A stretch of 64,000 bases of DNA, from the sequence record NZ_CP069398.1; one strand, 5' to 3'. Shown in pieces: positions 1,659-22,252 of the stretch. This DNA is from a plasmid. The stretch's first letter is position 1, and the number at the start of each line of letters is the position of its first letter. The translations under genes and the position numbers were made by a program. A model generated the notes under the pieces. That model was not told the DNA's origin and did not search any database. It was given only the letters and a program-made list of their open reading frames with translations.

Positions 1659-1671
1659 GGAGGAAAAAGAA

Positions 1672-2004: not shown

Positions 2005-2201
2005 AGTTAAGATTAGTTGAATTATTTATACATTTGTTTACGCAAAACTTTTTCATATGAAGATACTTCGCTTTTCTTTCTTCGACTAGCTAGGTTGTTA
2101 GTTAAATGAGATCGGTAGCTTTACATTGAGAAGCATATGGCGTGAAATATTAACAGTTGTAAAAATTATTACAAGAGAAATGATTAAAGGGAGGAATTTT
2201 T

Positions 2202-2771: not shown

Positions 2772-2816
2772 TGAAATTCAAGAAAGCTTTTCTAATAAGA
2801 GTAAACAGAAAAGAGT

Positions 2817-2912
2817 GATTAACCTGGAAGAAATAAAGGAGCAAGAAATCGAGCTTAACGAAGTGTATGACTATACTGAATTTCCGGATAAGGTCTTAAA
2901 TGGACTAAACTA
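2817..2912 (+). pseudogene. 5' fragment of the small Zn-ribbon ORF (intact copy at 22518..22703). Its 3' remnant is at 4141..4260, carrying a 1-nt deletion. It is split by a 1.3-kb insertion carrying the methionine aminopeptidase gene.
   Basis: 2817-2900 aligns to 22518-22600, and 4141-4260 aligns to 22600-22703. Confidence 0.5.
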
Positions 2913-3189
2913 ATAAGAGGATATATGTTCAATATACGAGCATATATCCTCTTTTCTTATAAGTATTAGATTCGTTATTTAGATACTATACATATAGTTT
3001 AATATGTATATATTATAAAGGAGCTTATGTTTGTTACAAATGCAGGATGTAGCCTATAGTAGGAGACTCAATGAGGTCTTCAATCCGATCATTAATATGA
3101 CTTAGGAGGTGAGTGTTATGAGTTTTGTAACTTTGTAATAATAGGTATTAAGCAATCGGGCCAGTTTATGGAGGACCGGAAACATTACT

Positions 3190-3978: not shown

Positions 3979-4370
3979 ATATTGTTTTCAGATGTTAGGT
4001 CCATAGATGTTTAAGGAAGTTCATCAAACGGGCGTATTTGTTGAGCAAAGATTAAAAGGTTAATACATATTAGTTATTTACAATATGTATTAACCTTTAT
4101 TTTCTATGTTTTTTTGATTTGAATCTTGATAATAAGGTCAGTGGCAGATGAGATAAATGCAATTCATCTTACTTCAAAAGTTCAGTAAAAGGTGGTATTT
4201 TCTTACGCGAATGTCGGGAATGCGGCATGAAGAAGAGTACCTAAATATAGATGTAGTTGTGTTTACTCATTTTTAGAATCTGAAATATATACCTTACTAC
4301 ACTGCCGATGCCTTTTATTACAATCTACTTTAGAAGTTAAGGCAGCCGTTGATTGCTCTTCCATTACCCT

Positions 4371-4772
4371 CTAATGATCACCTACTACTGCCTGTCCTGT
4401 CATCGTGAAAGTACGAAGTTTCCGAGGAATAAAAGCTCTTATCTCTTCTTCTTTATATCCGATTTGCAGTATTTTACGATCTTGTATAATAATAGGGCGT
4501 TTAAGTATAAAAGGATGACTCTTTATCAAATCATACAGACCCTGTAACGACAGTGTATCAATCTCTATATTTAACTTTTGAGGAATCTTTGACCTTGTAG
4601 AAATAATTTCATCTGTACCCTTTTCTGTCATACTAAGAATATTTTTAATTTCATCTTCTGTAATAGGTTCATACGATAGATTTCTTTCAATATAATCAAT
4701 TTGATGTTCCTCAAGCCAAGCCTTTGCTTTTCGGCAAGAAACGCAGCTGGTTGTCGTATATAGATTAATCAT
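4371..4772 (-). CDS. Spx/ArsC-family redox-sensing transcriptional regulator (Spx/MgsR-like). It is paralog 1; the second copy is at 22878..23285.
   Basis: N-terminal CxxC ([17 protein letters not shown]). The profile across the protein matches B. subtilis Spx. Confidence 0.8.
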
Positions 4773-5337
4773 TCTTTACACCTCGTCTATATGGATTTTT
4801 TTCTATCTTTAATTAATCAATGTAAATAAAAGTATATAGATTTCTAATAAGTAAAAGCCACTTGTATACTACAAGTGGCTTTTTGCTACGTTGAATACAC
4901 TAGATAATTCACGTATTATTTCCACCACTATTATAACATAGTTTATGTATCTGTTTAATGCATTTGGATCTTAATATAACTAAAATATGAAACATATGAT
5001 TCAGAACGCGAGACTAACCTTCTATGTTTTATAAACTTATTTCTTCAAATAGACATCCTCTTTGTTATTTAAGTGGGTATGTTCCTTATTCTTATTTAAA
5101 AACAGGACTTTGAATAAGAAAAGGGATAACTACTAAAGCTGTCATCCCTTTTCTTATTCATGGCAAGTGTATAGGTTTTATAACAAGGAAACGAAACATC
5201 TAATCCTACTTTTTACAGTGTCATTTGTTTCTAAGAGTTAGTATGGCGAGCACATAAGGTAAAATACATCCACTATTTACCATACATATACCTCTTCTAC
5301 AATAGGAAACTTAAAAGAAACAAGGAGGTGACACAAC

Positions 5338-5547
5338 ATGGCAAACAACAAAAGCAGCAACAACAATGAATTATTAGTATACGGTGCAGAGCAAGCAATC
5401 GATCAAATGAAATATGAAATCGCGAGCGAATTTGGTGTAAACCTTGGTGCTGACACAACTGCACGTGCAAACGGATCAGTAGGTGGCGAAATCACAAAAC
5501 GTCTTGTACAAATGGCTGAGCAACAACTTGGCGGTGGACGTTTCTAA
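5338..5547 (+). CDS. Alpha/beta-type small acid-soluble spore protein (SASP).
   Basis: 69 aa. EIASEFGV and GGEITKRLV signature. RBS AAGGAGGTG. Confidence 0.9.
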
Positions 5548-5569
5548 TAAAATTTTATAATGATGGCCG

Positions 5570-5602
5570 AAGGAAGAATGGTTTCCCGTTCTTCCTTTTT
5601 TC
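5570..5602 (+). terminator. Rho-independent terminator of the SASP gene (GGAAGAA..TTCTTCC stem followed by a T-run).
   Basis: Hairpin plus TTTTTT seen in sequence. Confidence 0.7.
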
Positions 5603-5682
5603 GTTAGTGAAAAAGGAGGATAATAGCATGAGGGTGCAAGAGATTCTTGTATCGCACCCAATAGCTGGGAAAAATTCAGATT

Positions 5683-6342
5683 TTACGATGAAATTACTTT
5701 TTGAATCTGCTCATCAATATTCCCATTACTTAAGCCTCCGTGATAACAAACCACAGATTCAATATCCAGGTCTAGGTATTTCTTCAAAGAGAGTCGAGCC
5801 TCTTTTATATCCAGTACAGTTGGAACATGAATCCCCTCAATTATTCCGTTTACACTGTACATTGAGTCCCCAGCAATCAGTGTTTTACTCTTTTCCAAAT
5901 AGAGACTGATATGCCCTGGAGTATGTCCTGGAGTATGAATGACACGAATCCCGCCGCAATACGTAAGTTCTTGACCGTCTTTCAAGGTATCATCCACTTT
6001 GCTCTTTGGAGGATTCTCTACGTTCCCGTCTTTCAAAAGAGGTAAATCCCCTTGTATATAAGGCTTATCCAAAACGTGAGCATATACTTTAATATGATTA
6101 TACTCTTGTACTATCTCAGGAAGACTACCTATATGATCTATATCCTGATGTGTCAAAATTATAACTTTTAGTTTGTCGAACGATACTCCTACTTTATCCA
6201 TTGCCACGCGTAAATCTTCCATTTGTCCCGGGAATCCAGTGTCTATTAAAACGGCCATTTCTTGATCCCATAAAAGAGTTGGATGAATAATATATCCATG
6301 AAATTCAAGCTGGAGCATTTCTACCCCTTTAGAAATTTCCAT
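5683..6342 (-). CDS. MBL-fold metallo-hydrolase (metallo-beta-lactamase superfamily).
   Basis: THQDIDH (HxHxDH) motif and downstream His ligands. Confidence 0.8.
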   Translation of the reverse strand: MEISKGVEMLQLEFHGYIIHPTLLWDQEMAVLIDTGFPGQMEDLRVAMDKVGVSFDKLKVIILTHQDIDHIGSLPEIVQEYNHIKVYAHVLDKPYIQGDLPLLKDGNVENPPKSKVDDTLKDGQELTYCGGIRVIHTPGHTPGHISLYLEKSKTLIAGDSMYSVNGIIEGIHVPTVLDIKEARLSLKKYLDLDIESVVCYHGGLSNGNIDEQIQKVISS

Positions 6343-7016
6343 AACTTTAGTCTCCTTTATAATTAGATTTTATTGATGTAGGATAATAGGTTTGACTACA
6401 CCAGAAGGTTGAAAGAATACAGCCAATTTTGCACGTAAAATACTACCATTACGTAGTACCAAAAAATATTCATTATCACACTAACCATCTTCAAATTAAA
6501 TAACATAAACATCATATTAAATTCAGTTTCCTTCTCAAAAGTTCCTGCTATTTTTTATTGTTGAATGAGACATAAGGAAGTAAAAAAGAGAACACCATCT
6601 GAAGAAGGGTTCTCTTTTTTGGGGGCTTCCAATCAGCTTACATGTTTATTGCAAGTTTTTTTTAGATATTTAATTGAGTTGTTTAGATATTTTCCAACCT
6701 TTCATCCATTTCATGAAAAAATGGGCCGTTAGGACAACCCCTAGTATCTATAAGCCAATTACCTCTTACACAATTACCTACCGATCTCTTACTGAAGTAA
6801 GGGGTCTTTATTATTTTTTTGAGTGGGCAGGCAAGCCTACTGCAGTAGATACATAGTATCTAAAGAATTCCGACTCCCTTACCTAATTGGTATCTATTTC
6901 GGTAGCGTAATACATTAACCTTTGCGTAATTGAAGCTACTCTAAAAGAGAGGCTTTTTTAGAAGAATTTTAGGGTTTTAAATCCAAATAACAGGATAATA
7001 TTTACTTACAAAGCAA

Positions 7017-7343
7017 TTGAAGGTTGTAGAAATGGAGGGGAGTAAGTTGCCTAACAAAGAATATCCATACTATTTTATAAAGTTAGGTAAGTTATATTAT
7101 GTAAATGAATCATGTAGAAACGTAAAAAGGAAAGAGATCTCTAGTTACGAATTTACAAATAATGAATTGGTCGCATTTCCCTTTGACACACAATCCATTG
7201 CGAAACAGACTGCAGATGAATGTGGTGGTTATATTGTAGTTAGAAATGCTACATTTGATGATTATATTAGTCAAGGAGAACGTTGGAGTAAGTATATAGA
7301 TTATAATGGGAAAGACATATGGAAACTTTATAATGTTAAGTAA
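7017..7343 (+). CDS. Hypothetical protein with an uncertain start. It lies immediately upstream of the IS21 left end.
   Basis: ORF only. Confidence 0.35.
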   Translation: MKVVEMEGSKLPNKEYPYYFIKLGKLYYVNESCRNVKRKEISSYEFTNNELVAFPFDTQSIAKQTADECGGYIVVRNATFDDYISQGERWSKYIDYNGKDIWKLYNVK

Positions 7344-7531
7344 ATAATAAAATACTTTTACTACTGGTAATCAAACTTATGTAAATAAGTTTCCTATATA
7401 ATATATGTAATCAGCGACTGTAAAATACTCAATAACAGCGATTCCAAATTCCCCAATAATAACAGATAATCGTTTCAAGACAACATCATGGATGGAGTGG
7501 AGAAACGGTGCTGAAGATTGGGGAGTTTTTT

Positions 7532-8770
7532 ATGATTAGAGAATTGTTTCAAAAAGGTTGGACGAAAACAGCTATTGCAGAAGCAACGGGTTTCGATCGC
7601 AAAACAGTCAGTAAATACCTAAAAGATAACCAGTTACCTAAGCGTAAAGGAAGTAAACAGAAAAAAGAAAGCAAATTAACCCCTTACAAACCGTATATAC
7701 TTGGACGGCTTAAAGAGGGTACCACTAATTGCGTAGTCTTATTAGAAGAAATACAAGCAATGGGTTATGAAGGTCAGCTCACAATCTTAAGAGATTTTGT
7801 TCGTCCTCTTCGCCAACAACCAAAGAAACAGGCAACCTTACGGTTTGAAACGCCACCTGGAAAGCAAGCTCAAATGGACTGGGCGTATGTCGGGAAGTAC
7901 TTAGTAAATGATGTGCTGCAAGATGTATATGGATTTATCATGATTTTGGGTTATTCCCGGATGAAATATGTAGAATTCACAACGAATATGAACCTAGAAA
8001 CTTTAATGAAATGCCATATGAATGCTTTCTCTTATTTTAATGGGATACCAGACCAAATCCTTTACGATAACATGAAAACAGTGGTGATCAAGCACAGCCC
8101 AGTGGAAGTTCGTTTTAATCGGAAATTCGAAGATTTCTTGGCTTACTATGGAATTGTGCCAAAGGCCTGCCGTCCAAGGAGGCCTCAAACAAAAGGGAAA
8201 GTAGAAAGAACGGTAAAGTATTTAAAAGATAACTTTTTTCAAAGAAAACATGAACCAACACTGAATGCGTTAAACGAGGATATAAAAGAATGGTTAAATC
8301 AGGTGGCTAATAAAAAGGAAAATCAGACAACAAATGAAGCACCCTTTAAGAGGTTTGAGCAGGAACAGAAGTTCCTGAAGGCCTGGGGGGAAAAACCTTT
8401 ATTTCCTACTTCCCATTGGGAGCATAGAGAGGTTAGTCGAGATTGTTTTATATCATACGGGGGAAAACAATACTCCGTTCCTTATCGTTATGTTGGACAG
8501 ACCGTTAAAGTAAAGGAAACATTAAATCATCATATAGAAATATACGATGAACATGAATGTATAGCAAAACATCCTATTCTTACTGGAAACGCAACGACAC
8601 ATATCCGGATGGAACATTATCAAGGTTTACAGAAGACAGAGATGGGTCAGAAAGAGAAACACATTGAAGGTTTGGCGACCGATGTTTCTCAATCACAAGA
8701 CCCATCCCCTAAAGTAGAGAAACGTCCTCTCGCTGCTTACGCAGCATTAGAAGAAGGTGAACATGTATGA
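7532..8770 (+). CDS. istA: IS21-family transposase IstA.
   Basis: N-terminal HTH and DDE integrase core (KTVVIKHSPVEVRFNRKF). ATG at 7532 with RBS GGGGAG. Confidence 0.9.
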   Translation: MIRELFQKGWTKTAIAEATGFDRKTVSKYLKDNQLPKRKGSKQKKESKLTPYKPYILGRLKEGTTNCVVLLEEIQAMGYEGQLTILRDFVRPLRQQPKKQATLRFETPPGKQAQMDWAYVGKYLVNDVLQDVYGFIMILGYSRMKYVEFTTNMNLETLMKCHMNAFSYFNGIPDQILYDNMKTVVIKHSPVEVRFNRKFEDFLAYYGIVPKACRPRRPQTKGKVERTVKYLKDNFFQRKHEPTLNALNEDIKEWLNQVANKKENQTTNEAPFKRFEQEQKFLKAWGEKPLFPTSHWEHREVSRDCFISYGGKQYSVPYRYVGQTVKVKETLNHHIEIYDEHECIAKHPILTGNATTHIRMEHYQGLQKTEMGQKEKHIEGLATDVSQSQDPSPKVEKRPLAAYAALEEGEHV

Positions 8771-9531
8771 TGAACGAGCTCTTAATTGACCGGCTAAGGA
8801 AGCTTGGTTGGCACCATACAGCTAACCAACTAGATAGTGTATTAGAAGACGTATCTAAAGATAATGTATCATATTCTGAATTTCTTCACACCATCGTTTT
8901 ACAGGAAATAGAGAAGCAAGAGTCGGGACAATTGGAAAAACGAATGAAACAGGCAAAACTCCCTTATAACAAAACGATTCACGACTTTGATTTTACATTT
9001 CAACCAAGTCTTAGTGAGAAACAAGTAAAAGAGACACTTACGTGCCGATTTATCTCGAATGGAGAAAACCGAATTTTACTTGGTCCACCTGGTGTAGGGA
9101 AAACGCATTTAGCTATTTCTTTCGCGGTGGAGGCCATTACCAAAGGATATACAGCTCTCTTCTTAACCTCAGATGACTTAGTAGAACAATGCCGAAAGGC
9201 AAATGAGAAAGGTACCCTCCATCGGCTTGTCAATCGATGGAGCCGGCCAGATATTTTAATTATAGATGAAGTAGGATATTTTCCATTTGACGAACTCACA
9301 GCAAATGTTTTCTTTCAAGTTGTATCTAAACGGTATGAGAAAGGAGCAATGGTTTTAACATCAAATAAATCCTATCTTGATTGGGGAAACGTCTTTGGAG
9401 ATGAAGTGTTGGCAACAGCTGTATTAGATCGGCTTCTTCATCATGCGATTACATTTAATATAAAGGGAGATTCATATCGTCTACGCGAAAAGAAAAAGGC
9501 AGGAATTTATCCTGCCAAGTTGACTACTTAA
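8767..9531 (+). CDS. istB: IS21-family helper ATPase IstB.
   Basis: Walker A GPPGVGKTH and Walker B ILIIDEVG. The start overlaps the istA stop (ATGA). Confidence 0.9.
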   Translation: MMNELLIDRLRKLGWHHTANQLDSVLEDVSKDNVSYSEFLHTIVLQEIEKQESGQLEKRMKQAKLPYNKTIHDFDFTFQPSLSEKQVKETLTCRFISNGENRILLGPPGVGKTHLAISFAVEAITKGYTALFLTSDDLVEQCRKANEKGTLHRLVNRWSRPDILIIDEVGYFPFDELTANVFFQVVSKRYEKGAMVLTSNKSYLDWGNVFGDEVLATAVLDRLLHHAITFNIKGDSYRLREKKKAGIYPAKLTT

Positions 9532-9594
9532 CCGTTTATAACGGGGAATTTGTTTTCGCTGATATTGGGTAAATTTAAAACGTTGTTGACATTA

Positions 9595-11715
9595 TCAGAT
9601 ACTATCTAGTATTTCATTACGCCAACCCATATTAAAATTAGTTGATAACTGATTAAACGATCCTTTTATCTTTTTAAGAAATTTAGTTTCATCAGTCCCA
9701 TTTTGTAACATTTTTAGAAGTTCTTCATTTTTCAAAGGCATAATCGTAACTGTCTCAGCAAACGTATCATTTTTTTTCGAAGATTGTAATGGAACAGTTG
9801 CAACAGCTCGCCAAATATTAATAGTATTTTCATCAAGTTCATCTGCAATGAATAATGTAGTTACTTCTTTAGGTGCAGATTCAATTGTTAAGTTAGTTGC
9901 ATGTCGCAAAACAGGTTCCCATTCTCCACGTTTTTGAGCGTGCTTATTCATTAATGTGACTTCAAGCATTAAAATATAATCACCATAATCAATTACTATA
10001 TCTCCTGCTCCCCCGCCAGCATGAGTCTCAGGTTCAAAATCAGCACTCATTGATAAATTTAAACTAGAAAACAAATCAAATTTTTGCGCACTAATATGAT
10101 ACCAAGCAATTCCAACAATATACTCAAAGATAGTTGGGACGTCGGTGTTTTCAGCAACAATTTTTTGTATTCTTGAATCGTTACTTCGATCTGAAAAAAG
10201 AGGCAAAATTTCGATTATCTTTTCTTTTGGATAGTGATCTTCAATATGCTTAATAAAGGCTTTACTTGTTTGATTAAATAATGTTCGGCGAATTTCTTCC
10301 TCGCTAGATAAATCTAAGTCGTCCTGAATCTCAAGAATCGCTTTATCAACTTTTTCATCTTCATACTCAAAAATCTCTTCAAGTGAAAGGTGATTTAAGA
10401 AAGGAGAAATGCTTTTCTTTTCATAGCTTTCATATTCTTCGGCTGTCGAATTTCCAAATATTAATTTCTCTAGATCAATTTCGGCAAAAAATTTCTTCCA
10501 TAAATCACGTTGTACTAGTTCAACTACACCGTTTTTAAAACTAATAATACTTGTAACTTTCATTACACGACGCGTAACATCACCATACTCTTGAATACCA
10601 TCATGACGTTTTGAAGCCTGAAATTGTAAAAATAGTTTCCGGTTTATATCTTGGTTTGTGAGAATGTCTAACTCTTCATTAAGCTCCATAAACTTAATAA
10701 CGTTTGTTTTATCACTTTTATCAAAGGCGAAAACATTACGGCCGAAACCAAATGCTTTATTAAGCATTGCTTTTTTCTGAGCATCAGAAAATAATTCTAC
10801 AATTCTTTTAAGGCTCTCCTCTGTTCGCTCAGAATTGAATACAATTAAACATTCATAAAACTCTCGATAAACCCTTATAGCTTTCTCACTTTTCCCACTT
10901 TTAAAGTTTTCAGAGAATATTTCCTCTGACATTGGTAGAGATTCATTTGCTACTGTGTCCAATGCTTCGCTCTCGAAAAATGGAATATATTCTCTTTCTA
11001 ATTTCTGAGCATGGCCATTTAAAAACTCTTTAACAAAAATAGAGGGTGTTATTGGTAGATAAGGATTCAACATTTGAATCATCGTAACAAACAAATCTTG
11101 GTCTACTCGTGGATAATTTAATAGAATATACATTGCCATCAACATAGGAGAATAATATTTTTCTCCCTCTTTTGAGTAGACTCTTAGCTTTAATAATTGT
11201 CGGAAAAATAATAAGTTTGTTTCATCAATTGGCAATAGATTCTCAAATCTACTTCTTCGTAATTTCTTTCCGTGTATCCATGATTTCCCTACTGGTGAAA
11301 TCTGACGTTGTTCATCTGCTAAACCAATTTTGACTAAGTTACTAGAGTAGTGACGTGCCCTTCCTTCAATAGAGCTATCTAAATCAGCATACAATTGCTT
11401 TAAATATGTCTTTTTCTTTAGATAACTAATATCTCTTTTAGCAAACTCAGCCTTTATAAATGGGTCTTCCATAGCTTCAACAAACTTATCGTACTTTGGA
11501 TGCTGTTTGAATACTTCTGGAGAGTTTTCTATTGCCAGCTCATAGAATCTAAACTGAGTAGATTCATTTGGATAACGTCCCCATACGCCTGATTCACTTT
11601 CAGCATAAACTTGTTCTAATATATTCGTATAAATTTTGTATGCATTAATTACATCGCTTCTACGCCCGTTCGTATCAAATAAATTAAATACCTTTTCTAA
11701 ATTATTAACTTTCAT
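9595..11715 (-). CDS. Type IIS restriction endonuclease-like protein, AlwI/PleI/MlyI/Nt.BstNBI-family-like (paralog 1, 706 aa).
   Basis: C-terminal block PTIFEYIVGIAWYHIS...HAGGGAGDIVIDY...LEVTLMNK...EWEPVLRH is shared with the 652-aa protein at 15743..17701. It lies beside a tandem Dam-like methyltransferase. The family assignment is from memory of the AlwI family (PF09491) and is not verified here. Confidence 0.55.
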   Translation of the reverse strand: MKVNNLEKVFNLFDTNGRRSDVINAYKIYTNILEQVYAESESGVWGRYPNESTQFRFYELAIENSPEVFKQHPKYDKFVEAMEDPFIKAEFAKRDISYLKKKTYLKQLYADLDSSIEGRARHYSSNLVKIGLADEQRQISPVGKSWIHGKKLRRSRFENLLPIDETNLLFFRQLLKLRVYSKEGEKYYSPMLMAMYILLNYPRVDQDLFVTMIQMLNPYLPITPSIFVKEFLNGHAQKLEREYIPFFESEALDTVANESLPMSEEIFSENFKSGKSEKAIRVYREFYECLIVFNSERTEESLKRIVELFSDAQKKAMLNKAFGFGRNVFAFDKSDKTNVIKFMELNEELDILTNQDINRKLFLQFQASKRHDGIQEYGDVTRRVMKVTSIISFKNGVVELVQRDLWKKFFAEIDLEKLIFGNSTAEEYESYEKKSISPFLNHLSLEEIFEYEDEKVDKAILEIQDDLDLSSEEEIRRTLFNQTSKAFIKHIEDHYPKEKIIEILPLFSDRSNDSRIQKIVAENTDVPTIFEYIVGIAWYHISAQKFDLFSSLNLSMSADFEPETHAGGGAGDIVIDYGDYILMLEVTLMNKHAQKRGEWEPVLRHATNLTIESAPKEVTTLFIADELDENTINIWRAVATVPLQSSKKNDTFAETVTIMPLKNEELLKMLQNGTDETKFLKKIKGSFNQLSTNFNMGWRNEILDSI

Positions 11716-11761
11716 TTCTTTCCCTCTTATCGTTGTATAATAACATTTTATAACTTAATAC

Positions 11762-12745
11762 CTATTTGTAATCCTTGCCTATATGACTTCTTTTTGGTAT
11801 TGGATACTTCTCCTGATTAGAATAATACTTAAGCCAAAATTCGATATTTCGGATTTCTTTAGGAAATGTTGTTAAGTATTGCTTCGCAGCTACAGGGTCA
11901 GTATTCATCTTTTCTAGCCATGAAACCATGTCTTTGTAAGTAACTTTATATGAAATATCACCCATTATACCTTTATCTTCATCCAAATCAACTACTTCAA
12001 TGATCGATAAATCTTCCGTCTTGTCATTTTTATTATAATTAACGAGGTATAATTCCCCTTCTAGTTTTTGCTTGGCTCTCCATAATGAGATATATTTTTG
12101 TCGATTATCAATTTTGCGAGGATTTTTCCAGGAAGGCTTTTCTTTCTTCATCTTTTTTGCAAATTCCTCTTGCTCCCTATCAGAAATCCATGCATACCGC
12201 ATAGGATGAGCCTGGGTATTTTCTATTGGATTCTTTCCTTTTTGTTTTGTTTCATTATTTAAAAATTCAACGAGAGTTTTGTTTATATCATCAAATATGT
12301 CGAAGTCGAAACCATAGGTAGACTCTTTACCCAATGCTTCCTTTGTAATACTTAAACCATTGTCATCTAAACAGAAACTAATTTCATGTACTTCCTTCAA
12401 TATTTCATTTATGTAAGGATCACCTTCATTATCAGTAGCTGAGCCAAGAGGCTTAGACTTTAAAACGGAGTTATTCAAGGCCTCTCCATTTTTCGATAAA
12501 AACCATTGTTTGTACTCATTCCATTTATATGTTTTATTTTTACCGTTACTCCAAACTCTAACACCATTTTCATTCCTATAATTATCATTATATTTAACAA
12601 AAAATAGAGATTCTTTTGAAATTTTAGAAAGAGATTCAAATTTTCTTCTTACAAACTGTTCATTATCGTTAGAATCATTATAAAACTCAAAAAAAACCAG
12701 TTGTCCACTAGCTTCAAACTGCACTCTATCTACCGTATAAATCAT
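11762..12745 (-). CDS. Hypothetical 327-aa protein, co-directional with and 46 nt upstream of the 706-aa endonuclease-like gene. No recognisable domain.
   Basis: Clean ORF with Lys/Asn-rich composition. No motif recognised. Confidence 0.6.
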   Translation of the reverse strand: MIYTVDRVQFEASGQLVFFEFYNDSNDNEQFVRRKFESLSKISKESLFFVKYNDNYRNENGVRVWSNGKNKTYKWNEYKQWFLSKNGEALNNSVLKSKPLGSATDNEGDPYINEILKEVHEISFCLDDNGLSITKEALGKESTYGFDFDIFDDINKTLVEFLNNETKQKGKNPIENTQAHPMRYAWISDREQEEFAKKMKKEKPSWKNPRKIDNRQKYISLWRAKQKLEGELYLVNYNKNDKTEDLSIIEVVDLDEDKGIMGDISYKVTYKDMVSWLEKMNTDPVAAKQYLTTFPKEIRNIEFWLKYYSNQEKYPIPKRSHIGKDYK

Positions 12746-13247
12746 TTTTTCTCCTTTTCTATGTATCTTATTTAATAATTCAAGTATAGCAAAACGGATA
12801 AGGTTACAGTTAGCTATATTAAAATTTATTTATCTTTATAATTTGTTATAAAAGCCCTTGTTATCTCGTTTTGCTTAGTTTATAATTCACAATTTTGATT
12901 ATACAAAAGAAAGAAGATTTCTCTATCTTAAAGCTATTAAAGAATAAAAACTACCTGTAGGTACTTAAACAAAGTAAATCTAATATTTCAATTAAGTAAT
13001 TGCACAAGATAGAAGGGTTGTCCTTAATAATATTATTATGGTATATTGAACATTATTAAGATGCGCGTTTTGGAAATAATTCAACCATTTAATGTATAAC
13101 TTGCTATTAACTCGAGAAATTTTAAGCGTAATCAGCTCTACATTAATATAGGGAAAGGACATATATATTTCCTTAGTAAAAGCATGCTCATTGGTGAAAC
13201 CAACTAATTTATATCTAACAGGTAAATGATTTATAAATACCTTTTAT

Positions 13248-15344
13248 TTGGGAGGAATTCAATTGCTAAAAATACAACAACGTAGATACTTGGGGAGCAA
13301 AGCAAAATTGCTTAATTTCATATCAGATATACTCAAAAAGGAAAAAATAGAATATAATCGATTTGTTGATTTATTTGGTGGTACAGGCGTGGTAGGCCAT
13401 TATTTTAATAAATCAAGCGAAATTATAATGAATGATTTACTTTATTCTAATTATTTAATCCATGTTGCTTTTATGGGTGACGAAAAAGTAAATGATGAAT
13501 TAGTCAAATCAATACTAAATGAATATAATAGTCTTAAATTTGATGAATTACCTGAAAATTACTTTTCAGATAATTTTTCCAATACGTACTTTAGTCATAA
13601 AAATTGCAAATTAATTGGTTACATACGAGAAGATATTGAAAGACGAAAGAAATCAGGAACAATTAACCATAGAGAGTTTGCCTATCTTGTTACCTCTCTT
13701 ATGTATGCTATGGATAGGATAGCTAATACTGTAGGGCATTACGACGCTTATAGAAAAAAGCAAGATGACTTAAATAGAGAGATGCGCTTAGATACTCTTG
13801 ATATTGAAGCTGCTGAATTAAATAAAGGTAATGAAATATATAATATGGACGCAAATTCACTTGTTGCCTCTCTTAAATCTGATGTTGTATATTTAGATCC
13901 TCCCTACAATTCAAGACAGTATTCAGACTGTTATCATTTACTCGAGAACGTAGCAGAATGGAAAAAACCTGACGTAAAAGGAGTAGCAAGGAAGATGGAT
14001 CGTTCTCATCGTAAAAGTAAGTATTGTATGAAAACTGCTGCTGAGACTTTCTCTGACCTTCTTGATAAATTGGATACAAAATATATTTTAGTCAGTTATA
14101 ATGATATGGGTGAGAATGGATGTAGTCGTTCTCAGGCACGTATGTCAGATCATGAGATTATTTCTGCATTAGAACGTAAAGGAAGAGTAACAGTTTACAG
14201 CACAGAATTCAAACAGTTTACTACAGGGACTTCCACTAAAGAAGATTTACAGGAACGTATATTTGTATGCGAAGTAGGGGTGTATTCCAATCCTTCTACA
14301 GAGGATTCGCAGTTGCTTAATAATGAAGGTATAGAAAGTATTTCTACCAGAAAGGGTAGTGTTAAGAGAAAAACTTCTAATAAGAAGAAATATGTAAAAT
14401 CTCCATTGAACTATACTGGTGGTAAGTATCGATTACTTGATCAAATCATTCCTTACTTCCCCAAAGATATTGAGAATTTTTATGATGTGTTTTCAGGTGG
14501 CGCTAATATAGGAATTAATTCTATAGCTCAAAATACCGTATGTATAGATTATAATGAGAAAGTTATTCGAATACAGCAACTTATTCAGAGGAAAAACTTT
14601 GATGAACTTCATAATATTCTTATTGATAAAATTGAGGAATTTGGCCTCAGTCGATCATATGAAAATGGATATGAAAAGTATGGTTGTGAGTCTACAAAAG
14701 GTTTGGGATCATACAACAAGGAGAAGTACAAACTTCTTAAACAAATGTATAATACCTTACCGATAAGCGAAGAGAAGGATATTTTACTTTTACTTCTAAT
14801 TATCTATGGCTTTAATAATCAAATTCGCTTTAACAGTAAAGGCGATTTTAATTTACCTGTTGGAAAACGTGATTACAATGGAAGTGTTCGAAATAATTTG
14901 TTACGTTTCAGTGAGGCTTCGAAAGAAAAAAGCATTACCTTTAAAGTAGATGATTTCCGTAGCTTAAAAGATATAAAATTATCTAAGAATGATTTCGTTT
15001 ATCTAGATCCCCCCTATTTGCTTGGGACTGCTAGTTATAATGAATCAGGTGGGTGGGCTATTAAGGATGAGACAGAACTTTTAGAGGTACTTGATAAATT
15101 AGATGAAAATGGGATTAAGTTTGCGCTTTCGAATGTATCTGAGCATAAAGGGCAAGAAAACATTTATTTAAAAAATTGGGTTGCCGAAAGAAGTCACTAT
15201 ATGCATAAGTTGAACTTCAATTATAATAATTCTAATTACCAATCGAAGGCTAAAGAAAAACAGACCATTGAAGTACTTGTGACAAATTACAAACCATCTA
15301 TTCTTATAGAAAACGAAGAGCAATTGAAATTAGAGTTAGTCTAA
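13248..15344 (+). CDS. Fused tandem Dam-like (alpha-class N6-adenine) DNA methyltransferase, with two complete methyltransferase units. This is typical for asymmetric type IIS sites.
   Basis: Unit 1 has FGGTGVVG (motif I) and DPPYNSRQY (motif IV). Unit 2 has FSGGANIG and DPPYLLGTASY. 698 aa. Confidence 0.85.
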   Translation: MGGIQLLKIQQRRYLGSKAKLLNFISDILKKEKIEYNRFVDLFGGTGVVGHYFNKSSEIIMNDLLYSNYLIHVAFMGDEKVNDELVKSILNEYNSLKFDELPENYFSDNFSNTYFSHKNCKLIGYIREDIERRKKSGTINHREFAYLVTSLMYAMDRIANTVGHYDAYRKKQDDLNREMRLDTLDIEAAELNKGNEIYNMDANSLVASLKSDVVYLDPPYNSRQYSDCYHLLENVAEWKKPDVKGVARKMDRSHRKSKYCMKTAAETFSDLLDKLDTKYILVSYNDMGENGCSRSQARMSDHEIISALERKGRVTVYSTEFKQFTTGTSTKEDLQERIFVCEVGVYSNPSTEDSQLLNNEGIESISTRKGSVKRKTSNKKKYVKSPLNYTGGKYRLLDQIIPYFPKDIENFYDVFSGGANIGINSIAQNTVCIDYNEKVIRIQQLIQRKNFDELHNILIDKIEEFGLSRSYENGYEKYGCESTKGLGSYNKEKYKLLKQMYNTLPISEEKDILLLLLIIYGFNNQIRFNSKGDFNLPVGKRDYNGSVRNNLLRFSEASKEKSITFKVDDFRSLKDIKLSKNDFVYLDPPYLLGTASYNESGGWAIKDETELLEVLDKLDENGIKFALSNVSEHKGQENIYLKNWVAERSHYMHKLNFNYNNSNYQSKAKEKQTIEVLVTNYKPSILIENEEQLKLELV

Positions 15345-15346
15345 AT

Positions 15347-15400
15347 AACCATTAGCACAAGAATCTTTTCATGACCTTGTGCTAATGGTTATTGATTTTT
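15347..15400 (+). terminator. Rho-independent terminator after the methyltransferase gene.
   Basis: AACCATTAGCACAAG..CTTGTGCTAATGGTT stem plus T-run. Confidence 0.7.
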
Positions 15401-15742
15401 ATTTGAGGCTTTATAGTTATTATTTAGATTATCCTAAAATTTTTTTTATATATTAAGGTTTCATGCTTCCAATGAAACTTCTATTTTGATTTGCATACAT
15501 AGTGAGTTTTATTAACCATTTACACTTTAACTTTTTTATAAAAATCAAATAATGAGTTATAAAATCCAGTTCGTTTATAGTGCTTGAAAATTATTATTTC
15601 AATTTCTTGACCCTTAAATAAAAGATTTATTTTATATCCAATTGCAATAAAAAGATAAGTAGTTATTTATTCGCCTTCTTTTTGTTTCTGAGAAAAGATA
15701 TACTAGAATATATAGACAATAAGTCGCAGGAGGAAAACAACC

Positions 15743-17701
15743 ATGTTTGAGTTCAAATCCTATTCATGGGTGATAGGAACCACTAGTTTTCGTGTTAAAG
15801 AAATTAATTATAAAATTGAACAGCAACTTTTTACACTCAAAGAATTATTCGGAGAATATCCAAATGAAAAATGGCAAAATCTCCAAGAAGTATATTATGA
15901 TATGCTTTTTGAAAAGAACCTTATTATAGGTAATGCCCAAAGGAAAGATAAAGATGCAAGAGAAAAAACTTCTGGCTTAAAAGAATTAGGTTTAATTACT
16001 GAAGATAGACACCTTACTGACGTAGGAGAAGAAATATTAAGGCTGGTAAAAGATGATGAAATAGATCAATCAAATGATTTTATGATTGACTTAGATGCTT
16101 TTGTTTATTTAAAACAATTATTAAAGCTTTATGTACGTGACCCTGAATTCAAGATTCGTCCCTTCGTTGCGCTATTATATTTGCTAGATAAGTTAGGTTA
16201 TCTTACAGAAGATGAATTCACCTACCTTTTACCTCTTTGTAAAAACAAAGAAGATGTTAAAAGAATGGCTAGTTTAATAGAACAGACCAGAAAGGGTAAT
16301 TTAAGTTTTAACAGTATAATTATTAAGTTTATGCGCAAAATGCCCAATTATCGAAAAGCATTAGACTATTTTTTAAAACAAGAAACAGTGACATGTGACT
16401 TGGTTTGTGAAATTGGTATGAATCGAAAATCTCGTAAATACGACGCTCCATACTATGATTTATTTATTGCACTTAAAAAGGCAGCTGTAACTGAAACTAT
16501 TACAGAAATTGAAATGAATAGCGTCTTAAATATTTTGAAAAAATTGAAAAAACCAAGTGCTGAGTGGAAACTTCTTTTATTTGGAAAAACCAAAAGGTCT
16601 TCCGAGAGATTAGAAAATTTTAAAAAAAGAATGTTTAAATTATTTTCTTCTAAAGATGAATCAGCTTTTCGTAATACTTTTTTTAATATTTTACACTTAT
16701 TTAAATGGAAAGCTAACTTAGTTGAGTATGCAGATTTAAACAAGCGATATTTTTCATTAGCAGATATTCTTTTATTCCAGGATGGTAAAGTTGAACTTAC
16801 TCTTTTCTCAAAATATTTCTTTCACTTGTGTATAGATGAATTATTAGAAGAAAAAATAGTCCCATCCCTTCTCCCTCGTAACCTAGCTTTACAAGAAATA
16901 TCGCCAGCACTTAATATTAAAACTGAAGAGGTAGTTGAACTAGTTAGTAAAGAGACTGGTAAATTATTGGATATACCTACGATGCGTACTTATTTTCAAA
17001 AAGAGAAAGAAGAGCAGTTACTTGATCTTATCAATCAGAAGTTTAACCCGAACAAACTTATTCAATTATTTACATGGATTGAAGGCAGAGAAGACAAACA
17101 AGTACAAGAATACGTTACCGACAATGCAGATATTCCGACAATTTTTGAATATCTACTAGGCATTAGCTGGTATCACATTAGTGGAGAGTCTATTAATCTC
17201 ATGGATTCATGGAATTTAAGTTTAGATGCAAATTTATTGCCTAAAAGACATGCTGGGGGAGGAGAGTCAGATATTGTTATTGATTATCCAGCCACAGATT
17301 TTTATCCACAACATAAGTTAATGATTGAAGCAACTCTTACTAATAAAACTAATCAAAGACGGGCAGAAATGGAACCTGTAAGCCGTCATTTAGGAACGCT
17401 AAAAGCCAAGCATGCAAACCAGGAAGTATATGCTGTGTTCGTTTCAAACCATTTAGATAGAAACGTTATTGTTGATCTAAGAAGTAGAAAAGCTGTGCCT
17501 TTTCACGATAGAATAACGGATACTTGGATTGAAAACAATAAAATTATTCCATTGAATACTAAAAATATAAAAATGATACTGGAAAAGAAAATACAATACT
17601 GGAGAATGTACAAATTCTTTTCAGTAGCATATGAAAATGAAATACCCTATCAAGATTGGTACGAGAAAACAATCAATTTACCTTTACAAGAGTACGTTTA
17701 A
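15743..17701 (+). CDS. Type IIS restriction endonuclease-like protein, AlwI-family-like (paralog 2, 652 aa).
   Basis: C-terminal HAGGGESDIVIDY...IEATLTNK...EMEPVSRH block and mid-region G(L)KELGL motif are homologous to the 706-aa protein. It has its own promoter region at 15400-15740 and a terminator at 17807-17846. Confidence 0.55.
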   Translation: MFEFKSYSWVIGTTSFRVKEINYKIEQQLFTLKELFGEYPNEKWQNLQEVYYDMLFEKNLIIGNAQRKDKDAREKTSGLKELGLITEDRHLTDVGEEILRLVKDDEIDQSNDFMIDLDAFVYLKQLLKLYVRDPEFKIRPFVALLYLLDKLGYLTEDEFTYLLPLCKNKEDVKRMASLIEQTRKGNLSFNSIIIKFMRKMPNYRKALDYFLKQETVTCDLVCEIGMNRKSRKYDAPYYDLFIALKKAAVTETITEIEMNSVLNILKKLKKPSAEWKLLLFGKTKRSSERLENFKKRMFKLFSSKDESAFRNTFFNILHLFKWKANLVEYADLNKRYFSLADILLFQDGKVELTLFSKYFFHLCIDELLEEKIVPSLLPRNLALQEISPALNIKTEEVVELVSKETGKLLDIPTMRTYFQKEKEEQLLDLINQKFNPNKLIQLFTWIEGREDKQVQEYVTDNADIPTIFEYLLGISWYHISGESINLMDSWNLSLDANLLPKRHAGGGESDIVIDYPATDFYPQHKLMIEATLTNKTNQRRAEMEPVSRHLGTLKAKHANQEVYAVFVSNHLDRNVIVDLRSRKAVPFHDRITDTWIENNKIIPLNTKNIKMILEKKIQYWRMYKFFSVAYENEIPYQDWYEKTINLPLQEYV

Positions 17702-17846: not shown

Positions 17847-18085
17847 ATGTCTCGTTGATTGACATTTTCTATTAGTTTGAAAAAACTCTTTTAGTAGAGA
17901 TTCGCTGCCACACGTAACTTTCACTTAGGATATAAACACAAAAGCGCTTCCCTGACAAAAGGAAGCGCTAAAAGAAATACATACTTTAAGTTTATAATAC
18001 CATGTATTAGCACAATTTAAAACAACAAAATAAATATTTGCTCTTATTATAGATAACATAGTTAAAATTGTGTTTACGAATATAG

Positions 18086-18433
18086 TTAATACGGGCCTTT
18101 AATTCTTTTCAAAATTTGTTCAGTGATAGTTAAACATTGTTTTTTCGTAAGTTCAATTTTGAATGTTCCATTAAATATAGCTTGGATCTCTCCCACTAAA
18201 TCGTTTGGAGTTGGATTCTTATACGCTGCAGATAAGACTCTTAATGCTTCATAATAATATTCATCATAACTATTAGTTGAAGAAATTTCATTATATAATT
18301 CTAAGGGATCCCATGTATTAATAAGATGTAAAATTATTTCTTGATCTTCATCAAAAATTTTTTTCAATGTTTCTTTTTTCAAGTTTTTCAACCCTCCTAA
18401 ATTAAATTTATATATGCCAATACCTAAAAACAA
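18086..18433 (-). CDS. Hypothetical protein in an AT-rich, ORF-poor spacer.
   Basis: ORF only. A hairpin at 17935-17975 lies downstream on the minus strand. Confidence 0.4.
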   Translation of the reverse strand: MFLGIGIYKFNLGGLKNLKKETLKKIFDEDQEIILHLINTWDPLELYNEISSTNSYDEYYYEALRVLSAAYKNPTPNDLVGEIQAIFNGTFKIELTKKQCLTITEQILKRIKGPY

Positions 18434-19100: not shown

Positions 19101-19385
19101 GTGTCCGAAATGGAACGTAAACGTGCAGGCAAAACATACAATGATGAGTTTAAGAAAACGATTGTGGATTTATATCATGCAGGAAACTCTGTTAAAAATT
19201 TAAGCAGCGAATATGGCGTATCAGAAGTAACAATCTATAAGTGGGCGAAGGCATTTACACCTATCAGCTCAGAAGAAGGATCTCTAACGCCCAAAGAATT
19301 AGCTGAGATCCAGAAGGAAAACCTTCGGTTAAAACAAGAGTTAGACATTCTAAAAAAGGCTATGGCCATATTCGCGAAAAAGTAA
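19101..19385 (+). CDS. IS3-family transposase OrfA (HTH).
   Basis: InsE-like HTH. It ends ...GCG AAA AAG TAA, an A6G-like slippery run. Confidence 0.85.
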   Translation: MSEMERKRAGKTYNDEFKKTIVDLYHAGNSVKNLSSEYGVSEVTIYKWAKAFTPISSEEGSLTPKELAEIQKENLRLKQELDILKKAMAIFAKK

Positions 19386-19444
19386 CGGAAGCAGAGCTCA
19401 ACCATTTTATCGAGAAATATAAAGAACAATACAGTGTTCAGAAA

Positions 19445-20260
19445 ATGTGCGAAGTGTTAACGATTCCAAGAAGTAGCTACTACCATTCGTTCAAAAAGAC
19501 AGTATCAAACCGCGAACAGGAAAATCGGAAGCTAACGAAAGAAATCGAACGAATTCATGTGAAAAGTAAAGCACGTTATGGCGCTCCAAAAATTCATAAG
19601 ATGTTAGTAAACAACGGGTGTGACCTAAGCCTAAAGCGTGTTCAGCGCTTAATGAAACAAGCAGGAATTCGTTCGATTACAAAGAAAAAATACCGTCCCT
19701 ATCCGTCAAAAGAAAAGGTGGTACAACTGACGAATCTGTTAAAACGAGATTTTTCTACACAGACCATTAATGAAAAATGGGTGGCAGATATTACGTACAT
19801 TCCTACAGTAAAAGATGGTTGGTGTTATTTAGCATCCGTATTGGATTTACATTCTAAAAAAATCGTGGGCTATTCTTTTTCTCGTTCCATGACGTCTGAA
19901 CTAGTCATTGAAGCACTTCAAAACGCTTACACTAATCAAAAGCCCCGAAAGGGCTTACTTCTTCATACGGATCTTGGCTCACAATACACGAGCAGTGAGT
20001 TTACTCAGCATGTCCACAAGTATCAAATGGAACAGTCTTTCAGCCAGAAAGGCTGCCCTTATGATAATGCCTGTATCGAGTCGTTTCATGCCATATTAAA
20101 AAAAGAGGAAGTCTATCATACGCAATACCTAGATTATTCAGCTGCCAAAGTAGCCATGTTTCAGTTTATAGAAGGATGGTATAACCGAAACAGAATCCAT
20201 AGTAGCCTCGGCTATCAAACCCCTCAAGCGATTGAGGATCAAATAAGAAAAACAGCTTAA
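19445..20260 (+). CDS. IS3-family transposase OrfB (DDE integrase core), in the -1 frame relative to orfA. OrfAB is probably produced by a programmed -1 frameshift near 19377-19383.
   Basis: DDE motifs (WVADITY, HTDLGSQY, ESFHAILKKE). The frame begins upstream of the first Met. Confidence 0.85.
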   Translation: MCEVLTIPRSSYYHSFKKTVSNREQENRKLTKEIERIHVKSKARYGAPKIHKMLVNNGCDLSLKRVQRLMKQAGIRSITKKKYRPYPSKEKVVQLTNLLKRDFSTQTINEKWVADITYIPTVKDGWCYLASVLDLHSKKIVGYSFSRSMTSELVIEALQNAYTNQKPRKGLLLHTDLGSQYTSSEFTQHVHKYQMEQSFSQKGCPYDNACIESFHAILKKEEVYHTQYLDYSAAKVAMFQFIEGWYNRNRIHSSLGYQTPQAIEDQIRKTA

Positions 20261-20640: not shown

Positions 20641-21906
20641 ATGGATGATGGGCAGCTATCAAACAGAATCATTATTTGTATAGACATGAAATCGTTTTTC
20701 GCCTCGGTTTCCTCTGTTATACGGGGGTTAGATCCGTTGAAAACAAGGCTTGCGGTGGTAGGAGATATCAAAAGGTCAGGATCGGTTGTGTTAGCTGCCA
20801 CACCTTTATTAAAGAAAGAAGGGATCAAAACAGGAAGTCGTCTTTTTGACATTCCTAAAAGGAAAGATATCCATGTGGTAAATCCATCTATGGAGAGATA
20901 TATCAAGGCTTCGAACTATATTTCGAGTTTGGTGTTACAGTATGTGGCTCCTGAAGACTTTCATGCGTATAGCATTGATGAGTTATTTATTGATGCGACA
21001 GCTTCTTTGCATTTATTCGCTAAAACACCAGAAGAACTGGCCCATAAAATTATCAACGAGATTTATCGTAAGACACGGCTGACAGCTACCGCAGGTATCG
21101 GTCCGAATCTCTTACTGGCGAAGGTGAGCTTAGATCATGAAGCCAAGAATAGCCCAACAGGAGTTGCCTATTGGCGATATGAGGATATTCCCTTTAAGTT
21201 GTGGCCCATTCATCCGATGAAGGATTTCTGGGGGATCTCGTCTGCTACAGAAAGACGCTTAAATCGTTTGGGCATTCACTCTATCAAAGAACTCGCTCTT
21301 TCTTCAAAAGAGATGTTACAAAAGGAATTTGGCATACTAGGCGAAGAGTTGCACCAACATGCGAATGGCATTGATTACAGTCGCATTTCTGATGTGTACA
21401 TTCCTAGCTCTCGTTCCTTTGGAAAGAGTCAGATTCTATTCCGTGATTATACAAACCGAAAAGAAGTGGAGTTATTGCTGTTAGAGCTATTGGACGATGT
21501 ATGTTTTCGTTTACGCATGCATCAAGTGGTGGCTCAGACTGTTCATTTATCCATTGGCTACAGCAAACAAACAGGTGGCGGCTTCTCCAGACAAAAGAAA
21601 ATGGGGAGAGCTTCGAACTTAAGCCAAGATATCTTTCCATACTGTTTAACGATTTTACATACGCATGATAGTGGCATGCCTATTCGCTCCATTGGCATTT
21701 CATTGTCCAACACTAGTATTCAAGAAGAGGAGCAAATGAGCTTATTTGAGGACATCGATCAGCGTGAAAGAGACTATGCTCTTGCCAAAACGATTGATGA
21801 CATTCGGCTGCGTTATGGCAAGAATAGTGTACTACGTGCGTCTAGTCACCTTCCTTATTCAACAGCTCGCTATCGAAACGGCCTTATGGGTGGCCATAAG
21901 GCTTAA
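20641..21906 (+). CDS. Y-family translesion DNA polymerase, copy 2.
   Basis: 421 aa, about 92% identical to the protein at 393..1658. Confidence 0.85.
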   Translation: MDDGQLSNRIIICIDMKSFFASVSSVIRGLDPLKTRLAVVGDIKRSGSVVLAATPLLKKEGIKTGSRLFDIPKRKDIHVVNPSMERYIKASNYISSLVLQYVAPEDFHAYSIDELFIDATASLHLFAKTPEELAHKIINEIYRKTRLTATAGIGPNLLLAKVSLDHEAKNSPTGVAYWRYEDIPFKLWPIHPMKDFWGISSATERRLNRLGIHSIKELALSSKEMLQKEFGILGEELHQHANGIDYSRISDVYIPSSRSFGKSQILFRDYTNRKEVELLLLELLDDVCFRLRMHQVVAQTVHLSIGYSKQTGGGFSRQKKMGRASNLSQDIFPYCLTILHTHDSGMPIRSIGISLSNTSIQEEEQMSLFEDIDQRERDYALAKTIDDIRLRYGKNSVLRASSHLPYSTARYRNGLMGGHKA

Positions 21907-21919
21907 GGAGGAAAAAGAG

Positions 21920-22252
21920 ATGGAACCTAGAGGAATGAAAAAATGGCGTCCATTCGCTACTATGCCAGAGCAATACATAGAATTAAAGGAAATGATAAAT
22001 AAGCAAGCAGAAATAGCTCAACCTGTTTTAACAGAAGAGCAAATGGAACAGATGAATTTCACCTTAATTGAAGCCTTACATACAAATAAACAAGTGTACC
22101 TTACTTATTATAAGAGAGGCCAATGCATAACAGAGACAGGATTCATTCAGTTTTTTGATTCTCTTGGGGATTTATTTATTTTCATTGATGACGTATTTGA
22201 GTTAAAGAATAGAATGAGATTAAGCGAGCTAATCGATGTTCGCTTGGCTTAG
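21920..22252 (+). CDS. YolD-like protein, copy 2.
   Basis: ATG at 21920 after RBS AAGGAGG. Near-identical to 1672..2004. Confidence 0.7.
   Translation: MEPRGMKKWRPFATMPEQYIELKEMINKQAEIAQPVLTEEQMEQMNFTLIEALHTNKQVYLTYYKRGQCITETGFIQFFDSLGDLFIFIDDVFELKNRMRLSELIDVRLA

Follow-up and report, generated by a model that had tools for sequence, protein, structure and literature searches.

We analysed a window of 64,000 nucleotides from a Priestia megaterium plasmid (sequence record NZ_CP069398.1), which carries at 9.5-17.7 kb a restriction-modification (R-M) locus of four genes, here named R1, ORF327, M and R2. This locus is probably a composite AlwI-family system, in which one methylase would protect two self-sufficient endonucleases of the same specificity, M and R2 being the native pair and ORF327 and R1 a guest. 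R1 (9595..11715, minus strand) encodes a Type IIS restriction endonuclease of 706 amino acids (aa), assigned to the AlwI family by Pfam, PADLOC and an alignment with N.BspD6I, and R2 (15743..17701, plus strand) encodes another AlwI-family Type IIS endonuclease of 652 aa. Between the R1 gene and M lies ORF327 (11762..12745, minus strand), coding for a restriction-enzyme-like companion of 327 aa. M (13263..15344, plus strand, in an open reading frame (ORF) that opens at 13248) encodes a fused two-domain N6-adenine DNA methyltransferase of the D12 class (Dam family). The original prediction, drawn from the letters of the window, had the coordinates, strands and lengths of the three largest genes right (with 698 aa for M, counted from 13248). 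Its picture of two paralogs around a methyltransferase stands, but it overlooked the 327-aa ORF.

The two endonucleases

Both large proteins score far above the gathering cut-off of the Pfam profile RE_AlwI (PF09491; 23.1 bits, as a whole-protein hidden Markov model score), and their supposed family membership is thus upheld. R1 reaches 120.1 bits (E 1.6e-34, positions 2-438 of the 441 in the profile) and R2 185.5 bits (E 2.3e-54, positions 2-439). Both also match the REBASE-derived REase_II model PDLC03557 of PADLOC (E 1.8e-123 for R1 and E 2.5e-41 for R2). The two proteins share 26% identity across ~610 residues (E 1e-45), the catalytic domains being most alike and the N-terminal (DNA-binding) parts very diverged. 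The C-terminal block quoted in the original prediction (PTIFEY..WYHIS..HAGGG..DIVIDY..E(V/A)TL.NK..E.EPV.RH) is indeed common to both, and can also be seen in the DNA as an inverted repeat of 61 nt with 70% complementarity (9985-10045 / 17227-17287). The G(L)KELGL motif, also claimed for both, is literal in the 652-aa protein, but the 706-aa protein has NLVKIGL.

The catalytic block of R1 aligns with residues 379-527 of N.BspD6I (5liz/2ewf; E 1.7e-9), and the profile of the R2 subfamily with residues 343-555 of the same enzyme (2ewf; E 1.1e-16), including the D...E...E.EP..RH catalytic block. R2 itself matched no PDB sequence by phmmer. In the PD-(D/E)XK block (HAxG..D...E.T...E.EPV.RH), the acidic residues and the RH pair are kept in R1 and R2 and are invariant within each subfamily. 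All subfamily invariants are present, i.e. H565, A566, G569, G571, D572, E585, T587, E598, P601, R604 and H605 in R1, and H503, A504, G506, D510, E529, T531, E542, E544, P545, R548 and H549 in R2. Both enzymes are full length and apparently catalytically intact, and the description of two full-length, far-diverged paralogs holds. R1 is 74-80% identical to the R1-type enzymes of five of the loci surveyed below (L006, L008, L010, L170 and L171), while the nearest relatives of R2 (70% and 64% identity) are found in plain M-R loci (L002 and L001, respectively).

The methyltransferase

M contains two stretches matching the D12 profile PF02086 (E 1e-61), with the motifs FGGTG/DPPY and FSGGA/DPPY, and its N-half and C-half span ~aa 8-343 and ~aa 375-683. 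The expected double alpha-class m6A methyltransferase, with FxGxG and DPPY twice, is thus confirmed as two D12 domains. M scores 144.7 bits against the TIGR00571 dam model (cut-off 114.85) and matches the fused-methyltransferase models of PADLOC (PDLC03292, E 3.6e-178; PDLC03287, E 7.8e-139). Its C-half aligns with T4 Dam (1yfj; E 4.6e-34) and keeps the equivalents of the hairpin residues F111, R116, P126 and R130, which we take to be those contacting GATC, and a phmmer search of PDB sequences with the N-half matched none. The real start of M is probably the TTG at 13263, giving 693 aa, rather than the TTG at 13248, because a GGGAGG ribosome-binding site lies 7 nt upstream of it (13250-13255) and all homologue alignments begin there. 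The fused two-domain methyltransferase and the RE_AlwI endonucleases together agree with the proposal of an AlwI-family, Type IIS-like R-M locus with an asymmetric site.

Occurrence of the two endonuclease subfamilies

We surveyed ~165 related loci, in which all ORFs were searched with the window proteins; 79 loci around R1 relatives are genome loci and 80 around R2 relatives are metagenome loci. The R1-type gene is single in 78 of the 79, the exception being Halalkalibacter alkaliphilus (L006, the same as L007), where a second RE_AlwI gene is present. Similarly, the R2-type gene is the single RE_AlwI gene in 78 of the 80 loci, none of which carries an R1-type gene; the two remaining are L100, with an extra 312-aa C-terminal ORF, and L165, with a frameshifted single gene. 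The usual layout of the R1 subfamily is an N-type and a C-type D12 domain, either fused (~650-720 aa) or split (~350 + 310 aa), with one endonuclease, and the same N-type and C-type pair stands by one endonuclease in the R2 subfamily. Both methyltransferase domains are adjacent (fused or split) in ~66 of the 79 R1-type loci and present in 76 of the 80 R2-type loci, the other four being cut off by contig ends. Among the surveyed loci, the combination of R1 and R2 was seen in the window plasmid only, and two full-length RE_AlwI genes were found in just three loci, with a different second subfamily and gene order in each. Each subfamily is therefore self-sufficient, and R1 and R2 are most probably not obligate partners.

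R1-type genes also occur alone, since at least eight loci and L174 have no such D12 methyltransferase within 5-10 kb, and no confirmed solitary R2-type gene was seen in the surveyed loci. The eight loci (L025, L027, L028, L033, L038, L071, L082 and L083) belong to Lachnospiraceae/Enterocloster metagenome-assembled genomes, where the gene lies among two-component and transporter genes. In L174, an intact R1-type gene (10001-12121), 78% identical to the window R1, has no methyltransferase within 10 kb; the same locus (= L173) contains an ORF327 shortened to 209 aa (1288-1917), separated from the R1-type gene by 8 kb of housekeeping-like genes. In Fredinandcohnia humi (L001), the R2-type system is located in a prophage-like region (1-17000) with genes for ribonucleotide reductase, the thymidylate synthase ThyX, dUTPase, thymidine kinase and an integrase.

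Cassette replacement and recognition site

Between the R1-linked and R2-linked groups, the median methyltransferase identity is 61% for the N-half and 52% for the C-half, which are the values found within groups. The methyltransferase halves of L020 (R1-type) and L156/L164 (R2-type) are 93%/94% identical, with endonucleases at 27.7% identity, and those of L069 (R1-type) and L108 (R2-type) are 93%/93% identical, with endonucleases at 26%. The DNA of L020 and L156 shows 94.2% identity along 2057 bp that coincide exactly with the M gene, and homology breaks at the endonuclease boundary. In the same way, L069 and L108 have 87% identity along their two M genes and show no homology across the endonuclease, and homology is regained ~0.9 kb (L069) or 0.4 kb (L108) beyond the endonuclease gene. 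Judging from these alignments, the endonuclease gene appears to have been swapped as a cassette on a conserved methylase scaffold. Such replacement beside near-identical methylases argues that both subfamilies recognise the same site, which makes a dual specificity unlikely.

This site is probably GGATC/GATCC. M has the architecture of M.AlwI, M.EacI and M.GmeI, which are single-chain two-domain methylases with one domain for GGATC and one for GATCC (PMC4081073; PMC3526280); the T4-Dam-like C-half and the match to the dam subfamily point in the same direction. Moreover, R1 matches the PADLOC models of nicking enzymes (GAGTC enzymes) weakly and in its catalytic part only, unlike its match to PDLC03557. 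The persistence of solitary R1-type genes would be understandable if GGATC is protected by any GATC methylase (PMC4081073).

Several short words are avoided in the window and in the pooled related loci. The most avoided 5-mer in the window is CCGCT/AGCGG (2 observed vs. 19.9 expected, Markov-3), followed by CTCGG/CCGAG (9 vs. 26.8), and this strong under-representation suggests that other restriction systems act on the plasmid or its host. The pooled loci also avoid GGACC/GGTCC, CTCAG/CTGAG, GATGC/GCATC and CCWGG.

Probable origin as a composite locus

In the R1 clade (R1 71-80% identical), the native methyltransferases of L008, L010, L170 and L171 share 72-79% identity. The window M is 48-49% identical to these native R1-clade methyltransferases and 59% identical to the R2-linked ones of L001 and L002. 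Because it is closer to the latter, we infer that M and R2 are the native unit, ORF327 and R1 being a guest module that would have come without its own methylase. No decayed second methyltransferase gene was detected by tblastn in the 64-kb window, including the divergent spacer between ORF327 and M.

The same kind of composite appears to have arisen independently in at least two other loci. The gene order in L006 (H. alkaliphilus) is M-M-R(731/737)-ORF327-R1, and the methyltransferases are foreign to R1 (55-57%). In L170 (a metagenome contig) the order is M-ORF327-R1-R(671), with a methyltransferase native to R1 (79%) and with the 671-aa enzyme as the guest. The second enzymes of the three double loci (652, 731/737 and 671 aa) share no more than 24-30% identity, be it with one another or with R1, and stand in different gene orders, so these composites would represent independent events.

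Traces of further endonuclease genes were also found. A remnant in L175 consists of a 270-aa N-terminal fragment. In L100, a complete M-M-R2-type system is followed 3 kb downstream by a 312-aa ORF (9939-10877) that shares 34% identity with R2 and comprises the C-terminal linker and catalytic domain only, with an intact catalytic motif; it would be a truncated remnant or, like ss.BspD6I, a catalytic subunit that stands on its own. Endonuclease turnover thus seems to be ongoing, with the window as a state in which both genes are intact. Two decaying systems were observed as well: both methyltransferase genes of L076 (7992-11944) are in fragments by a shortened R1-type gene, and the R2-type gene of L165 (2494-4443) is frameshifted into 154 + 455 aa.

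The companion protein ORF327

Searches of Pfam, NCBIfam and PHROGs with ORF327 returned zero matches. Its aa 73-314 match the REBASE-derived PADLOC model PDLC03429, labelled 'Type II restriction enzyme' (E 4.3e-36), which the ORF327 relative P0263 matches end to end (E 4e-81). No PDB sequence was matched by phmmer, and a Foldseek search of PDB and BFVD with the ORF327 model gave nothing under E 1e-3. The protein has a conserved D...E core, and its fold matches to PD-(D/E)XK are weak. The comparison of the ORF327 family with both endonuclease subfamilies by hhalign was not significant (probability 0.1-0.2%); the best of these non-significant alignments places D149/E160 of ORF327 over the catalytic D510/E529 of the endonuclease. 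A HMMER scan of 1.84 billion representatives yielded 116 relatives, including ~145-aa proteins that match the core domain. In a separate scan of viral contigs, relatives of ORF327 were absent.

The C-terminal part of the core covers ~80 residues (roughly aa 205-290). In relatives of this part (P0334, P0305, P0320), the partner is an EcoRI-type adenine methyltransferase in a C-terminal fusion, an S24 LexA-like peptidase in an N-terminal one, or an HATPase_c_3 domain. The ~145-aa versions are found near AlwI-type systems in L001 (1955-2392), L002 (6707-7141), L045 (6248-6889) and L154 (6672-7343). With the family profile (alignment A3, window ~12000-12210), a single PDB sequence was matched, the SET domain of Schizosaccharomyces pombe Set7 (5h6z, E 0.02), over HPNxYW..N..KFISLW..LYLVNY; the fold search gives no backing to a SET-domain identity.

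Full-length ORF327 members adjoin an RE_AlwI gene in 9 out of the 10 loci with readable context, the tenth being a solitary, distant member. They mostly lie between M and R on the same strand, and are convergent with R in two loci. Across loci, the identity of ORF327 tracks that of R1, which indicates that ORF327 travels with the endonuclease. An extra RE_AlwI gene is present in 4 of the 9 ORF327-bearing loci vs. 1 of the 158 others (Fisher p 2e-5, in a sampling that is not independent of locus discovery). Murray et al. (2012) reported that M.GmeI and GmeIP, of the GGATC system of Geobacter, are separated by a 333-aa ORF that they left unexplained (PMC3526280). From its profile match and its context, ORF327 appears to be a nuclease-like companion of the endonuclease, and it is a better candidate than the R1/R2 pair for an unusual subunit arrangement.

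Transcription units

ORF327 and R1 probably form one operon, since the gap between them is 46 nt long and hairpin-free and each gene has a ribosome-binding site. This unit diverges from M over a 500-bp spacer (12746..13262), whose sole ORF (56 aa) is unsupported. The spacer has promoter-like hexamer pairs with 10/12 matches on both strands (+12858-12886 and -12925-12898); such hexamers are not above chance (40 found vs. 48.5 expected in shuffles). Immediately past the stop codon of M lies a terminator-like hairpin (15344..15393, plus strand), in which a perfect inverted repeat of 18 bp encloses a 14-nt loop and behind which comes a T-run (GATTTTTATTT). The stop codon of M and the start codon of R2 are 398 bp apart, and 350 bp of these are past the hairpin. 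Given the hairpin and T-run right after the M stop, and then 350 bp, the R2 gene very likely has its own promoter, or at least plausibly so. Separate promoters and terminators had been proposed for the two endonuclease genes: the hairpin and T-run after M agree with an independent R2, but the promoter part finds no support in hexamers at chance level. A palindromic GC-rich hairpin called on the minus strand (17943..17969), whose stem of 11 bp includes 6 GC pairs, is a possible bidirectional terminator; it lies 240 bp past the stop of R2 and before a convergent DUF1871 gene (18086-18433, minus strand).

Flanking elements and distribution of the locus

Insertion sequences (IS) flank the locus on both sides. 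On the R1 side, an IS21-family istA/istB pair (7508..9531, plus strand) has ORFs of 420 and 254 aa, and the distance between the end of istB and the stop codon of R1 is 63 bp; the IS21 terminal repeats were looked for next to R1 and not located. On the opposite side, IS3-family orfA/orfB genes (19101..20260, plus strand; ORFs of 94 and 271 aa) have a transposase-like sequence. Further on, a 421-aa ORF for a Y-family (DinB/UmuC-like) polymerase overlaps a 168-aa ORF (20641-22252), an annotation that comes from translations read by eye.

R1 and ORF327 are each 100% identical to a Priestia megaterium plasmid protein at NCBI. The identical ORF327-R1-M-R2 order was recovered from two independent read sets (SRR12978823 and SRR25463610), and a third (SRR12978821) gave a contig of just 2.6 kb that holds R1 and the end of ORF327. 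The Logan contigs with the same locus break at the IS21 pair, and L003 and L004 end before the IS3 elements. A megablast search of PLSDB plasmids with the 8.1-kb locus returned zero matches.

Proposed model of the locus and alternative readings

If the locus is a same-site composite, the fused M would protect one asymmetric site, with one of its Dam-family m6A domains for each strand, and two AlwI-family endonucleases of the same specificity would be kept under this single protection. The ORF327-R1 module would have arrived, or been retained, without its own methyltransferase, and the cover that the resident methylase already gives to the R1 site would be the reason why R1 is tolerated. If AlwI and MlyI are a guide, each endonuclease would recognise its site as a monomer with the N-terminal domain and, once its C-terminal PD-(D/E)XK domain has transiently dimerised, cleave a few bases away. 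Endonuclease cassettes would turn over recurrently at same-site loci, with the two-enzyme state as one of the stages, and two enzymes may give redundancy against phage counter-measures.

Several points weigh against this reading. GGATC/GATCC is not rare in the window (91 observed vs. 79.5 expected), and its observed/expected ratio is 0.98 in the 2.49 Mb of pooled loci L001-L174, where GAGTC/GACTC is the second most avoided 5-mer (ratio 0.76). The avoidance of GAGTC may be a generic avoidance of GANTC, as GAATC/GATTC is also avoided. Simple turnover does not explain the enrichment of extra RE_AlwI genes in ORF327 loci. That M covers the R1 site would follow from the pattern across the family and from intact genes coexisting stably, M being 48-49% identical to the usual R1 partners. 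Moreover, one endonuclease copy may be silent, and it is conceivable that the catalytic domains of R1 and R2 cross-dimerise.

The original prediction had suggested a heterodimer, a pair of top-strand and bottom-strand nickases, or a dual specificity. That R1 and R2 are subunits of one obligate heterodimer or strand-specific nickase pair, as in BbvCI/Bpu10I, seems very improbable: two full-length paralogs with intact catalytic blocks do surround one methylase, and their catalytic domains are their most similar parts, so that cross-dimerisation is physically conceivable, but almost all of the ~160 loci have just one of the subfamilies beside the same methyltransferase pair. Furthermore, the other double loci pair R1 with unrelated subfamilies (731/737 and 671 aa) in varied orders and orientations, and the R1 and R2 genes stand in separate, divergent transcription units. 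We also see little chance that R1 and R2 recognise different sites with one methyltransferase half each (e.g. two near-palindromic sites). The N-terminal, DNA-binding parts of the endonucleases are indeed very diverged, and of the two methyltransferase halves, which differ, the C-half alone is clearly T4-Dam-like. However, the ordered N-type and C-type pair stands beside single endonucleases of either subfamily, methyltransferase pairs that are 93-94% identical in both halves serve either of them, and the known GGATC systems use a two-domain enzyme for the two strands of one site (PMC4081073; PMC3526280).

Two other explanations deserve more weight, although both remain on the doubtful side. 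ORF327 and R1 might form a two-subunit endonuclease like BspD6I/BstNBI, in which a large subunit recognises the site and a separate nuclease subunit serves the second strand, with R2 as a conventional self-dimerising enzyme; this tentative possibility is compatible with the same-site composite. It is in line with the PDLC03429 match (E 4.3e-36), the conserved D...E core with weak PD-(D/E)XK fold matches, the RE_AlwI neighbour present in 9 of 10 loci and the co-divergence with R1, with the best, though non-significant, alignment setting D149/E160 on D510/E529, and with the unexplained 333-aa ORF of the Geobacter GGATC system, which is alike in its position. Against it, close R1 orthologues exist without ORF327, in two loci it runs convergently to the endonuclease gene, and homology to the AlwI catalytic domain is not significant. 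It is rather unlikely that the second endonuclease gene is an irrelevant leftover, silent or decaying, caught in a cassette replacement or an IS-driven rearrangement. IS21 and IS3 bracket the locus, with istB 63 bp from the R1 stop, and displaced-gene remnants (L175, L100), a frameshifted gene (L165) and fragmented genes (L076) do occur elsewhere; but in the window both genes are intact and keep all invariant residues, ORF327 and R1 are served by good ribosome-binding sites and by a promoter region that looks plausible, the same four-gene order is present in two independent read sets, and R1 and ORF327 are 100% identical to NCBI plasmid proteins.

A bolder version of the same-site composite, which we hold to be speculative, is that ORF327 with an AlwI-family endonuclease is a mobile, methylase-less module settling beside methylases of the same specificity. 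ORF327 might then be a new Type IIS nuclease subunit or helper, as in the GmeI oddity, and the stacking of endonucleases might be a selected anti-anti-restriction strategy.

Significance and comparison with known systems

Cassette turnover and ORF327 are more interesting leads than the R1/R2 pairing. Type IIS endonuclease genes would act as exchangeable cassettes on a conserved methylase scaffold, near-identical methylases being associated with endonucleases that are 26-28% identical, and intermediates exist with two intact endonucleases under one methylase. This bears on the diversification of restriction systems and on the spread of endonuclease genes without their own methylase, and may also explain the persistence of solitary endonucleases. 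In addition, the small, uncharacterised, nuclease-like ORF327 family could be a new type of subunit or a source of nicking or cleavage reagents.

The window locus resembles the AlwI, EacI and GmeI systems in having an RE_AlwI endonuclease and a single-chain two-domain m6A methylase, a likeness that for R1 and R2 rests on the Pfam and PADLOC profiles. It differs from them by two endonuclease genes of different subfamilies around one methylase. The GmeI system of Geobacter also has an extra ORF (333 aa) between M and R, as ORF327 in the native R1-clade loci. BspD6I/BstNBI is a heterodimeric Type IIS enzyme with a nicking large subunit of 604 aa and a catalytic small subunit of 186 aa, specific for GAGTC. 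R1 and R2 belong to the same Pfam family, their catalytic block aligns with it, and it offers a precedent for an adjacent extra nuclease gene (PMC3017599). However, essentially only the catalytic domain is similar (E 1e-9 to 1e-16), the second large gene is here full length and codes for a DNA-binding part of its own, and ORF327 shows no detectable homology with the large subunit's catalytic domain, unlike ss.BspD6I.

BbvCI/Bpu10I, with two paralogous subunits, and LlaJI, with two R genes, also combine two related endonuclease genes with two methyltransferase activities (PMC3017599; PMC4081073; PMC3488263). In these systems the genes are always together and neither works alone, whereas each subfamily studied here is alone in ~150 loci. 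An arrangement of full-length endonucleases from two subfamilies and a nuclease-like companion under one methylase is absent from the classes of asymmetric-site enzymes in the reviews consulted (PMC3017599; PMC4081073), and REBASE may list the genes as putative. The parts belong to known families (RE_AlwI and the fused Dam-family methylase), the arrangement is the new element, and the basic picture of AlwI-type systems is unchanged. The concept closest to the window locus is that of Ershova et al. (2012), in which a solitary endonuclease survives when another methylase in the cell covers its site (PMC3488263). R1 resembles such solitary endonucleases in having no methylase of its own, but differs from them in lying directly beside the covering methylase and that methylase's own endonuclease.

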